A stretch of DNA of 53,551 nt from Candidatus Hermodarchaeota archaeon (GTDB lineage Archaea > Asgardarchaeota > Hermodarchaeia > Hermodarchaeales > Hermodarchaeaceae), in the NCBI GenBank assembly GCA_016840065.1, contig JAEOTB010000055.1, positions 1 through 53,551 on the forward strand. Direction: 5' to 3'. Below are positions 21,777-25,112 of this stretch, piece by piece. A program made the translations under genes and the position numbers. Under the pieces are notes generated by a model that saw nothing but the letters and a program-made list of their open reading frames with translations, did not search any database and was not told where the DNA came from. Position 1 is the first letter of the stretch; every line of letters starts with the position of its first letter.

Positions 21777-22331
21777 CTATTCGAGGGGTTCTGCATCTAG
21801 TAGGTGCGAAGGGCGGAACCGCTCCCCACAATCTGGGCACTCACCTTTGACCTTCATGAACTCCAGGTATTCGCCGTGATGTCCTTGAGCTTGGCAACTG
21901 GGACATAGAACTATTCTCTCTCCAGGATACAACTCAGCCTTACATACCACGCAGTGTCGGTGGGTTTCGATTTTCTGAGTGTGCTTGGGAGATTTGGCCA
22001 GGGATTTGTTGCAACTCCAACACTCCCTCTTTTCTAGATTGTTCCATTTGCCGCAACTAGCACATACCTTTACAGTAAGTTCATGCTCTGAAGAACGCCA
22101 ACCCCTGGGAGGTGAGACAACCCTCACTCGAGATGATTCCTCATCCGGTTGTTCCTCAGAAGATGTTTGGTAAGGAGGTGTATATCTTTCCGGCGTTGCT
22201 GGTCTTGGTCTACTGCTTCTAGACCCTCCACTAGATGGTCCACTAGCCGCCTTACAAATCCTGTAAATCACCCCGATAATGATAAAGATAATTACGATAT
22301 ATAATTCGAGGAATTCAAATTGTAAGATAAT
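21777..22331 (-). CDS. Membrane-anchored RanBP2-like zinc finger plus RING-like protein (1 module)
   Basis: CASCGKWN...CWSC and CVVC...CPSC...GH...CPDC. The frame stays open 20 codons upstream of the ORF-track start (22271) and encodes a TM helix starting at ATT. Confidence 0.75.
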   Translation of the reverse strand: MILQFEFLELYIVIIFIIIGVIYRICKAASGPSSGGSRSSRPRPATPERYTPPYQTSSEEQPDEESSRVRVVSPPRGWRSSEHELTVKVCASCGKWNNLEKRECWSCNKSLAKSPKHTQKIETHRHCVVCKAELYPGERIVLCPSCQAQGHHGEYLEFMKVKGECPDCGERFRPSHLLDAEPLE

Positions 22332-22378
22332 TTTTCACTTCCCAATTGCCTCATCACTTCTCAAAGAGATTATTGTGA

Positions 22379-23254
22379 CTAGGAGAGAGTAACTAATAAC
22401 TGGCTAGGCCGCATCCGCAGTTTGCAGATTGGGCAACCTCCCTTAGCTCTTACGAATTCATGCATGTGAGCACGATGTCCAGTTGCATGGCATTTAGGAC
22501 ATATCCCTGCTGCTTCTCCTATACTCACCCCGTAGCCGCAGACCACACAGCTGGTGATTGATTTTGTGGCGTGAGTCTGAGCAGTGGCGGTTTCAAGAGA
22601 TGTCTCACACTTCCAGCACTCCTCCTGTTCTGGACTGTTCCATTTCTTACATTTGCTGCAAACAAGTACTTTGAACCGGAAATCGATTGGGGTTCTTATG
22701 CTTCGTCCGGTCCGAGACACATGAAGAAGCTGGGCTTGTGTAAGATTCTGGTTACAACTAGGACATACGCTCTTTGTTCTGACGAAATCCATCAGATGCG
22801 CGCTGTGACCCTGAGCCTCGCAACAGGGAGTCAGAGAGATTGGATCGTCTTGGTATTGCCAGAAGGCGCAGACCGAGCAGTGGGGTTTTGTGTTAAAGGA
22901 ATGAGTGTGTTGAGTCGCCCCAGCTATTTCTCCTTTACAATGCCAGCAAGATTCCTCAACTGGGCTATTCATCTTACCACAATTGCCACAGAGAAGAACG
23001 AGAACATTTTTCCGGGCGGACTTCCATCGTCTCGGACTGGGGAGCGCATGTGGTATTGACTGTTTACTACCAGGAATAACTGTAGTAGATGGCCTTCTTC
23101 TGGGAGGAAGTGTCTGAGGTTGGGGTTGACGACCCGTGCTCGGGGGTGGGGTTTTTGGTTCACTCCCCCTCTTCTGTAAGTAGAATCTGCAGAGATAGCA
23201 TATCCCCATGATGATTGCTGAAAATATTGCGTAGGGGAGGTATACAATTTGCAA
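22379..23254 (-). CDS. Membrane-anchored zinc finger plus RING-like protein (2 modules)
   Basis: N-terminal TM helix, Pro/Arg linker, two copies of CxxCGKxN-x6-CWxC plus RING-like C/H pattern. Confidence 0.8.
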   Translation of the reverse strand: MQIVYLPYAIFSAIIMGICYLCRFYLQKRGSEPKTPPPSTGRQPQPQTLPPRRRPSTTVIPGSKQSIPHALPSPRRWKSARKNVLVLLCGNCGKMNSPVEESCWHCKGEIAGATQHTHSFNTKPHCSVCAFWQYQDDPISLTPCCEAQGHSAHLMDFVRTKSVCPSCNQNLTQAQLLHVSRTGRSIRTPIDFRFKVLVCSKCKKWNSPEQEECWKCETSLETATAQTHATKSITSCVVCGYGVSIGEAAGICPKCHATGHRAHMHEFVRAKGGCPICKLRMRPSQLLVTLS

Positions 23255-23260
23255 AGGGGA

Positions 23261-24130
23261 TTATCTCCGGGGTTGTTGCCTGGGGTGATGCGTTGTATGG
23301 GGTTTTGAAACGAGTAGGTGACTTGTTCTTAAACGCTGCCCACAGGTTGGACACTTTCCCTTAGCCTTTATTAACGCGAGTAAATGAGTTTTGTGTCCTT
23401 GGCAATGGCAATTGGGGCAAATTGCGATTAGCTCAGACGGAGTAAGCTCATAGCCGCAGGCGACGCAGCTTGGAGTGGATTTCACTATCTGAGTCTCCCT
23501 TTTTACCGCGGAGAGGGCTTTGGCGCAGCTCCAACAAGTTGTTTCGGTAGGATTATTCGCTTTCCCACATTCACAGACAAGGACCACAACTTTTTGCTCT
23601 AAGGGTTTCCATCGTCGAGAGGGTGGACGCCAATCAGGAGGAAGAACCCGAAGTAGATGAGCAGGTTTAATGCTCGCTTCGCAGCTGGGGCAAGAGCCCT
23701 TAGCTCTAACCCAATCTTGTAGGTGCTCTGTGTGCCCCTGGGAAAAGCAGCAGGGTGTTATCACAAGATGATCTCCAGAAAAAAGATAGTAAGCACAGAT
23801 AGAGCATCGTGAAGATGGGTCGAATGTGTGCAGTTGGTGTTCGAGAGAGGCTAGTGGCTTATTACAGCCCCAGCATTCTTTCTCTGAGGTGTTGTTTAAC
23901 TTGCCGCATTCACAGGTTATCGCCATGACTCGCTGCTCGGAAAGTATTTGTCGTTGTTGCCTTTGAGCAGGAGGAGTTACCGTTGTGGATCTTGCCTTTC
24001 TTTCCCCGCGCTTCTGTTCAGATGAACAGGCCTGTGCTATAGCAAGACATACTCCAACTATAATCACTACTACGATAATTATCATCAATGCGATGGTTTG
24101 ATAGTAAAGATAACTTGGTTGAAGAATCAT
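23261..24130 (-). CDS. Membrane-anchored zinc finger plus RING-like protein (2 modules)
   Basis: N-terminal TM helix and two ZnF+RING-like modules. Paralog of the two downstream genes. Confidence 0.8.
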   Translation of the reverse strand: MILQPSYLYYQTIALMIIIVVVIIVGVCLAIAQACSSEQKRGERKARSTTVTPPAQRQQRQILSEQRVMAITCECGKLNNTSEKECWGCNKPLASLEHQLHTFDPSSRCSICAYYLFSGDHLVITPCCFSQGHTEHLQDWVRAKGSCPSCEASIKPAHLLRVLPPDWRPPSRRWKPLEQKVVVLVCECGKANNPTETTCWSCAKALSAVKRETQIVKSTPSCVACGYELTPSELIAICPNCHCQGHKTHLLALIKAKGKCPTCGQRLRTSHLLVSKPHTTHHPRQQPRR

Positions 24131-24317
24131 TCATCTCTCCTTTATCTTGATTCAGTTTCTATTTCTTGGTGATATCAAGTTCTGTTGTGAAACCTCCAAC
24201 AGCCCTACTCATGGAACTGGTTACTTTAGTAATATTAGGTTTACGTTTTCTATAGAGTATTGGATTGTACGAAAGGAATTAATTTCTGTTAATATATTAT
24301 TTGAGTGGGTGTTTCTT

Positions 24318-25112
24318 GTGCCTTTCGCACAAATAGGTGATATCAAAATACATTATGAGATTGAAGGACAAGGTGACAATCTGCTACTCATTCACGGGGT
24401 CACAAGCTTCATTGGGAATTGGCGATTTGTACGCCCACATTTGAGCAAGCATTTCCATCTTGTATTACCAGATTTGCGGGGGCATGGACAATCCGACAAA
24501 CCCCTCACTCACTATTCTGTTGAGATGTTTGCCCAAGACATGATTGGACTTCTGGATGAATTGGGCATTGAGAGGTGCATTGTTGCTGGACATAGTCTCG
24601 GAGGGTTTATTTCACAGCAAGTTACATTGGATGCTCCCAAGCGAGTCCGGGCCCTTATTCTAATCTGCACTGCTCCTCGGGTTGATGTTGAAGCAGCAAT
24701 GGCACAAGTTCAGGTGTCCCAACAGCTACATGGATTACCTCCAGAACAGGTTATTGAGAAACAACTGGAACTCTATTATGAGAACCCTGGCGAATTACGG
24801 TCTACCCCAGGAATGATTGAGACCCTGAAGAAGGATATCAATCAGAGCCAGGAAAATCTAGTGAGTCATGGATACGCACAAGGTGCGGCAGTTGCATTCA
24901 ACGTGGAGGGACGATTGGACGAGATTCAGGCACCGACTCTCATAATTCAATGTGCACAAGACAAGACCTTTCCTTTGCGATGGGGTGAGTACCTTCGGGA
25001 TCATATCCCTAACGCTACGCTCAGAGTGATTAACAAGACAAGCCACTCAATTCAGATGGAACAACCTGAGAAACTAGCTCAAGCCATAGCAGAGTTCTGT
25101 AAGAGTATTTAA
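24318..25112 (+). CDS. Alpha/beta hydrolase
   Basis: LLLIHG, PDLRGHGQS, nucleophile GHSLGG, QD and H catalytic positions. Likely GTG start at MPFAQIGD. Confidence 0.9.
   Translation: MPFAQIGDIKIHYEIEGQGDNLLLIHGVTSFIGNWRFVRPHLSKHFHLVLPDLRGHGQSDKPLTHYSVEMFAQDMIGLLDELGIERCIVAGHSLGGFISQQVTLDAPKRVRALILICTAPRVDVEAAMAQVQVSQQLHGLPPEQVIEKQLELYYENPGELRSTPGMIETLKKDINQSQENLVSHGYAQGAAVAFNVEGRLDEIQAPTLIIQCAQDKTFPLRWGEYLRDHIPNATLRVINKTSHSIQMEQPEKLAQAIAEFCKSI

Follow-up and report, generated by a model that had tools for sequence, protein, structure and literature searches.

Whether archaea use membrane-tethered ubiquitin ligases, a layout typical of eukaryotes, is the question raised by a three-gene array in a Hermodarchaeota (Asgard) genome. 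The window analysed here is a stretch of 53,551 nucleotides that makes up contig C30 (JAEOTB010000055.1) of a metagenome-assembled genome (2.59 Mb, 84% complete). At positions 21777-24130 the open reading frame (ORF) listing shows three co-directional genes on the minus strand, termed gA, gB and gC. A first-pass annotation made from the letters alone had described their products as membrane-anchored proteins with two, two and one modules, each module combining a RanBP2-type zinc finger with a RING-like finger, and had proposed a family of candidate archaeal ubiquitin ligases (E3s), with a reminder that Asgard archaea encode ubiquitin systems; the organism is indeed an Asgard archaeon. We conclude from sequence comparison and structural modelling that gA, gB and gC are probably membrane-bound ubiquitin ligases, because their units are closely related to the ligase encoded in the ubiquitin operon of the same genome.

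The three anchored proteins and their module counts are borne out by the minus-strand ORFs, by a regular-expression scan and by Kyte-Doolittle means calculated in 19-residue windows (Table 1). All three share a common architecture, where an N-terminal hydrophobic anchor is followed by a Pro/Arg-rich tether and then by the module or modules. In each module, a linker of 19 residues separates a C4 zinc ribbon from the 42-residue RING that follows. According to the scan and an alignment of the five modules, the ribbon begins with CxC in gA or CxxC in gB and gC, followed by [GK]K-x-N-x6-CWxC. The overall motif proposed earlier thus stands, with two corrections: the gA ribbons have CxC and not CxxC, and the ribbon of gB module 2 has CKK in place of CGK. 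The RRW ending attributed to the tether corresponds to an [RK]W motif found before four of the five ribbons. The RING pattern, CxxC-x12-(CPxC or TPCC)-x3-GH-x13-CPxC, covers 42 residues from the first to the eighth ligand (C1 to C8) in all five modules, and the ligand spacing in four of them, C-x2-C-x12-C-x2-C-x4-H-x2-H-x11-C-x2-C, is that of an eight-ligand cross-brace RING. The TPCC variant, correctly noticed in the first RING of both gA and gB, moves ligand 3 to the residue directly after the Pro. Columns invariant across the five modules comprise the Cys, Asn and Trp of the ribbon and, in the RING, C1, C2, P, C4, G-H, C7, P and C8.

That the second finger of each module is a RING homologue is well supported: sequence profiles, the modelled fold and the paralogy with the operon ligase all agree. 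The regular-expression scan found the 42-residue ligand spacing of the five modules to be identical in the operon RING finger P0009, and a profile of the five modules aligns with P0009 over 55 columns in hhalign (probability 98.6%, E 5e-16); in a profile search of the own genome, the module profile matches this operon finger with 50 bits. Among PDB sequences, the best matches are eukaryotic RING-H2 ligases, namely RNF24 (1.7e-6), RNF13 (7.4e-5) and EL5 (2.3e-4), followed by RNF38 and Arkadia, all of them covering the RING half of the module only. With a 25-sequence alignment as input, the AlphaFold2 (AF2) model of gA module 2 reached a predicted local distance difference test (pLDDT) of 92.9 and a predicted template modelling score (pTM) of 0.83. 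In an exhaustive VIA-align search, the top 50 structural matches of this model are all RING or U-box E3 domains (Z up to 6.5), and the Foldseek comparison suggested in the first-pass annotation agrees. The best match is the U-box of Prp19 (Z 6.5, root mean square deviation (rmsd) 1.6 A over 56 residues); the others include Ring1b, Pex RINGs, CHIP, Rad18, RNF4, TRAF6, RNF38 and HRD1. A PHD or LIM identity of the second finger was rejected, as neither fold occurs among these 50 matches and the sole LIM sequence match is EPLIN with an E-value of 0.1.

Experiments on Caldiarchaeum (PMC5654768) and on Helarchaeia (bioRxiv 10.1101/2023.07.25.550441) have shown E3 activity for operon RINGs of the P0009 type; in Helarchaeia, a cascade of ubiquitin-activating enzyme (E1), ubiquitin-conjugating enzyme (E2) and RING ubiquitylates UEV-Vps23 (bioRxiv 10.1101/2023.07.25.550441). 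The RING from the operon of Caldiarchaeum subterraneum shows the same two-residue displacement of C3/H4 as the modules, together with an extra "C3B" cysteine, and its substitutions I30Q, W58A and R69A impair ubiquitylation (PMC5654768). We mapped I30, W58 and R69 of that study onto the module alignment as markers of the E2-contact and linchpin positions. The residue two positions after C1, equivalent to I30, is I, A, V, V and V in the five modules; the helix residue equivalent to W58 is W, L, F, F and F; and a Pro follows C7 in all five, so that the hydrophobic, helix and Pro features by which a RING contacts its E2 are present. The basic linchpin directly after C8 (R69 equivalent), which P0009 retains as R, is found only as K in gB module 2, the other modules having E, G, N and G. 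A basic residue three positions after C8 occurs in the CPxC-type RINGs (gA module 2, gB module 2 and gC) and not in the TPCC-type first modules. As far as the alignment goes, all modules could thus plausibly dock an E2, and the allosteric activation step is not assured, since the contact positions are kept and the linchpin is mostly lost.

The ubiquitin system that such ligases would need is present in the genome, so the lack of a ubiquitin/E2 system, which the first-pass annotation had named as one refutation of its proposal, does not apply. A single cluster on contig C69 contains a ThiF-type E1, a UQ_con E2 (5.5e-34), ubiquitin and the 81-aa RING finger P0009, as well as UEV-Vps23, Vps28 and an EAP30 protein of the endosomal sorting machinery ESCRT-I/II, and JAB/MPN genes are located elsewhere in the genome. 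The N-terminal helices lack positive charge on the preceding side, where the flank is uncharged or acidic, and are followed by a K/R-rich flank; in gA, the N-terminal side is uncharged. By the positive-inside rule, the proteins are plausibly single-pass with the N-terminus outside and the C-terminus inside, so that the fingers would be cytoplasmic. Of the earlier proposal of a paralogous single-pass membrane E3-like family, the RING homology and the paralogy hold, the single-pass topology is plausible, and E3 activity is the part that we infer.

The reading that we favour, with somewhat better than even confidence, is that gA, gB and gC are membrane-tethered RING proteins that arose as lineage-specific paralogues of the operon RING E3 and dock the E2 for ubiquitin transfer. 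The N-terminal helix would anchor the protein, and a disordered Pro/Arg-rich tether of 40-60 residues would hold one or two cytoplasmic units, in each of which a linker strand joins a C4 zinc ribbon to a cross-brace RING and three zinc ions are expected. The RING would dock the ubiquitin-charged E2 of the C69 operon and promote transfer of ubiquitin to lysines of membrane or membrane-proximal proteins or of the ligase itself, and this ubiquitylation could feed the ESCRT-I/II machinery encoded beside the ubiquitin genes. The two-RING proteins would have arisen by internal module duplication and subsequent gene duplication, and the two RINGs of gA and gB may work as an intramolecular pair. The more specific proposal that the tandem ribbon-RING proteins are such pairs and, as membrane ubiquitin ligases, mark membrane proteins for UEV-Vps23 and ESCRT is a tentative one that we consider rather unlikely in this full form; the two-module AF2 model (9-sequence alignment, pLDDT 64, pTM 0.42) is too poor for inter-module contacts.

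The first finger was assigned by the first-pass annotation to the RanBP2/NZF type, and each protein would then be a ubiquitin receptor as well as a ligase. The spacing C-x2-C-x3-N-x6-C-x2-C is present in three of the five ribbons, a ribbon-only profile has its best PDB match in the RanBP2-type finger of Mdm4 (E 0.005, marginal and limited to 18 residues), and MDM2/MDMX carry a RanBP2-type finger ahead of their RING. However, archaeal and eukaryotic L40e score almost equally (0.07), the two gA ribbons have the C-x-C form, and PF00641 matches none of the five isolated ribbons at E ≤ 10; at the same threshold it gives five weak matches in the whole genome and none in this window. The weak Pfam matches of the isolated ribbons are instead to the prokaryotic zinc ribbons DZR, Zn_Ribbon_1 and Zn_ribbon_3. 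The leading Trp of the W-x-C signature is missing in all five ribbons, which have a conserved Trp after the third Cys instead. The T-F dipeptide that forms the ubiquitin-contact motif of NZF fingers is found after the second Cys in none of the five, the residues there being G-K or K-K. In the AF2 model, a strand before the ribbon, the linker strand and a strand after the RING form one sheet with the ribbon packed against the RING, and the high pTM indicates that ribbon and RING are a single compact unit. Moreover, in 37 of the 149 best metagenomic clusters related to the module, an ordinary CxxCG...CPxCG ribbon directly abuts the RING. RanBP2 membership is thus unsupported, and a receptor-plus-ligase function appears quite improbable; the first finger is better described as a zinc ribbon that forms a structural N-terminal extension of the RING and may add a partner-binding surface.

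Several observations weigh against a ligase function. The array is unlinked to the ubiquitin operon, and its neighbours on the opposite strand, an M24 peptidase and an alpha/beta hydrolase, are syntenic and give no functional hint. The window proteins score under the Pfam cut-offs (24.4 versus 27.3 bits for zf-RING_2; for Prok-RING_1, PF14446, with a gathering cut-off of 29.1 bits, 22.9 for gC and 13.8 for gA, compared with 31.1 for the family member P0014), and the structural Z-scores are modest, as is usual with a 55-residue domain. Among the modules, gA module 2 is the weakest, having Ala and Leu at two E2-contact positions; gC lacks a canonical start codon, and the sixth ligand of its RING is Glu where His is expected, so that one zinc site may be altered (its orthologues share GHH.E in this region). 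This altered ligand and the linchpin missing in four of five modules would suit non-catalytic zinc-finger scaffolds for membrane interaction or oligomerisation, comparable to the C-terminal RING/zinc fingers of GATOR2 and IFT-A. These C-terminal regions also give the longest Foldseek alignments, and WDR19, IFT122, WDR24 and WDR59 appear in the sequence search as well. Yet the long IFT-A and GATOR2 alignments have an rmsd of 13-15 A, meaning that the fit is limited to the RING; by sequence, the nearest relatives are the catalytic RING-H2 ligases and the operon E3, and the hydrophobic, aromatic and Pro positions of E2 contact are retained. A scaffold role is accordingly a minority possibility, to which we give a low probability. 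Far less probable still is that the hydrophobic N-terminus is a cleaved signal peptide and the repeats are extracellular and disulfide-bonded. Surface proteins, too, often combine a hydrophobic N-terminus with a Pro-rich linker and Cys-rich repeats behind it; but positive charge is absent before the hydrophobic core and strong after it, multi-pass relatives have an extremely basic stretch ahead of the module, and the conserved His ligands accompany clear homology to a cytoplasmic RING E3. This charge distribution and homology led us to reject it.

Compared with known systems, the ligase reading places the window proteins closest to the archaeal operon E3 srfp (here P0009), which has the same 42-residue RING, CxxC-x12-CPxC-x4-H-x2-H-x11-CPxC, and the helix motif H-L-x-[ED]-W/F-V-[KR]-x-K-G that also occurs in the modules. 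The srfp protein is soluble, of approximately 80 aa, operon-linked and equipped with a basic linchpin after C8, whereas the window proteins are membrane-anchored, 183-291 aa long and encoded off the operon, carry one or two modules with the linchpin mostly lost, and have a zinc ribbon and a 19-residue linker ahead of each RING. RNF24, the PA-TM-RING proteins RNF13 and RNF167, and the plant ATL family (EL5), which provide the best PDB sequence matches, share with the window proteins the layout of a membrane helix, a basic stretch and a cytoplasmic RING-H2-type finger. They differ in ligand order (C3H2C3 in eukaryotic RING-H2 ligases versus C-C-C-C-H-H-C-C in the window RINGs), and the eukaryotic anchored RING-H2 ligases have neither the zinc ribbon nor tandem RINGs. 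MDM2/MDMX share the order of a C4 finger followed by a RING, but they are soluble and nuclear, a long spacer separates their fingers, and the ribbon match to Mdm4 lacks Pfam support; this resemblance is probably convergent. Two diverged RINGs per unit are also found in Ring1b-Bmi1, BRCA1-BARD1 and the RNF4 dimer, with strands flanking the RING core as in the module model, and Ring1b/Bmi1 and RNF4 are among its structural matches; in gA and gB, unlike these dimers, both RINGs reside in one chain. The Pfam family Prok-RING_1, whose cut-off P0014 passes and the window proteins do not, covers only the first half of the RING.

We therefore class the window proteins with the srfp-type archaeal RING E3s; new in them are the membrane anchor, ribbon fusion and duplication. 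In the papers searched, no RING protein of an Asgard archaeon is described as membrane-anchored or tandem; to our knowledge, only the small soluble operon RING has so far been shown to act as an E3 in archaea. A hallmark of eukaryotic cells is the coupling of ESCRT sorting to RING ligases that reside in the membrane. If the paralogues are active, a single E2 would be the hub for approximately 30 RING proteins, most of them membrane-bound, and the archaeon would have a hub-and-spoke E3 repertoire like that of eukaryotes. Should the proposal of RING pairs feeding ESCRT be true, ubiquitin-dependent sorting of membrane proteins by membrane-resident E3s would predate eukaryotes and would already have been diversifying in archaea via gene and module duplication. 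The family also offers small tractable constructs, as the 95-residue module is confidently modelled.

The array is part of an expansion of approximately 30 RING genes in this genome, most of which encode membrane helices. Besides the array, about 28 RING ORFs match the module profile. The RING is C-terminal in nearly all of them, at least 18 have predicted membrane helices, and some of the ORFs lie in tandem arrays on contigs C5, C101, C106 and C56. In a set of 1.84 billion representative proteins, 1303 clusters match the profile at E ≤ 1e-3; among the best 149 of these, a membrane helix is present in 85, more than one RING in 19 and the ribbon-linker-RING module in only 11, the family with this module including the multi-pass forms P0014 and P0017-P0020. 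In 400 sampled Asgard genomes, where 12 candidates were scored per genome and the full module was called at E ≤ 1e-17, it was found in 17 of 18 genomes of the own family, with no case among the 381 genomes of 32 other families. The ribbon-linker-RING module is thus confined to one Hermodarchaeota family, and its conservation within that family indicates that the module is not a chance occurrence. Local duplication within a single genus gave rise to the three-gene array: the other three species of the genus share it, or the parts that their contigs cover, whereas the sister genus has one single-module gene in a syntenic locus, flanked by the same alpha/beta hydrolase and M24 peptidase genes. 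In a midpoint-rooted module tree, in which some supports are moderate, the gA and gB first modules form one group (94/92) and their second modules another (86/66), the sister-genus gene joins the first modules (85/82), and gC forms a separate lineage (99/92). These groupings fit an internal module duplication that preceded the gA/gB gene duplication.

Other RING proteins found in these searches add to the variety of the group. Two paralogues in the same genome, C62:953-2959 (-) and C73:713-1789 (-), have a P-C-C variant of ligands 3 and 4, and the C73 paralogue has H-x2-C instead of H-x2-H, i.e., the eukaryotic RING-H2 ligand type at position 6, so that archaeal and eukaryote-like ligand patterns coexist within one genome. 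Metagenomic membrane proteins P0024 and P0026-P0032 carry two tandem srfp-type RINGs without the long ribbon-RING linker; proteins of this kind have arisen in several other clusters, which makes the membrane-anchored tandem RING a recurrent design. The metagenomic protein P0021 (755 aa, soluble) contains three or four srfp-type RINGs followed by leucine-rich repeats (LRR_14, 2.5e-29) and a further C-terminal domain, an architecture reminiscent of innate-immunity proteins.

Table 1. Genes, membrane helices and zinc-binding fingers of the array (positions in the window)
Feature	Position	Strand	Remarks
gA	23261..24130	-	289 aa, ATG start; transmembrane anchor, basic/Pro-rich tether, two ribbon-RING modules (ORF)
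gA transmembrane helix	24029..24097	-	approximately residues 12-34; Kyte-Doolittle mean 3.56
gA module 1 zinc ribbon	23864..23914	-	CxC-GKxN-x6-CWxC; scan and alignment
gA module 1 RING	23681..23806	-	TPCC variant, 42 aa; zf-RING_2 24.4 bits, under the 27.3 cut-off
gA module 2 zinc ribbon	23525..23575	-	scan and alignment
gA module 2 RING	23342..23467	-	CPxC form; modelled module (AF2 pLDDT 92.9, pTM 0.83)
gB	22379..23254	-	291-aa paralogue, TTG start; transmembrane anchor, two ribbon-RING modules
gB transmembrane helix	23180..23248	-	approximately residues 3-25; Kyte-Doolittle mean 1.91
gB module 1 zinc ribbon	22937..22990	-	CxxC-GKxN-x6-CWxC; scan
gB module 1 RING	22754..22879	-	TPCC variant; scan
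gB module 2 zinc ribbon	22607..22660	-	CxxC-KKWN...; scan
gB module 2 RING	22424..22549	-	the one module in which the residue directly after C8 is basic (K)
gC	21777..22328	-	one-module paralogue; 183 aa from non-canonical ATC 22328 (most likely start), 164 aa from GTG 22271
gC transmembrane helix	22254..22313	-	Kyte-Doolittle mean 2.54; upstream of any canonical start codon
gC zinc ribbon	22011..22064	-	scan
gC RING	21828..21953	-	Glu at sixth ligand in conserved GHH.E; Prok-RING_1 22.9 bits, under the 29.1 cut-off

Orthologues of gA (61-67% identity) share the MI.Q start, and the database gene call P0004 begins 15 codons downstream. The gB gene starts 6 nt past the gA stop; its orthologues are found in G108 and G109 and as P0010, and close relatives occur on contigs of Candidatus Hermodarchaeota archaeon YT_063 and H02S_Hermod_124. 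The recorded gene call for gC, P0011, begins at the downstream GTG and leaves out the membrane helix, which lies upstream of all in-frame ATG, GTG and TTG codons. Three orthologues (G108, G109 and G110) preserve both the open frame and the helix, even though their nucleotide sequences have diverged heavily. The aligned start codon is ATG in G110, CTG in G108 and G109 and ATC here, with a GGTGA-like motif 6 nt before it in each genome (region 22254-22334, minus strand), and the downstream GTG proposed by the ORF listing aligns with TTC in G109. Taken together, the kept frame and helix, the aligned start codons and the TTC in G109 make the ATC the most likely start of gC. The tether of gC contains a motif, Y-x-P-P-Y-[QE]-[TM]-[SP]-[SP]-E-E (window 22140-22185, minus strand), that is kept in all four species of the genus (orthologues in L026, L027 and L028) while the rest of the tether is variable; it is similar, not identical, to PPxY/LPxY-type motifs and could be a docking motif.

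Additional observations concern neighbouring genes. In the ubiquitin cluster (L005, G000:C69:38000-52000), the E1 lies at L005:4543-5622:-, the E2 at L005:5577-6038:-, mature ubiquitin at L005:6235-6471:- and the operon RING at L005:6481-6726:-. Flanking the cluster is a membrane protein that has a Yip1 domain and, at its N-terminus, a zinc ribbon (L005:3792-4550); the cluster also contains two small ORFs, L005:6839-7363:- and L005:8944-9240:+. The alpha/beta hydrolase ORF next to gA (24147-25112, plus strand; listed from TTG 24147) probably begins 55-60 codons later, as its G100 orthologue (L031:297-1091:-) begins just before a conserved DGxKIxxExxGxG stretch, and the later start would leave a divergent intergenic region of approximately 190 bp upstream of gA.

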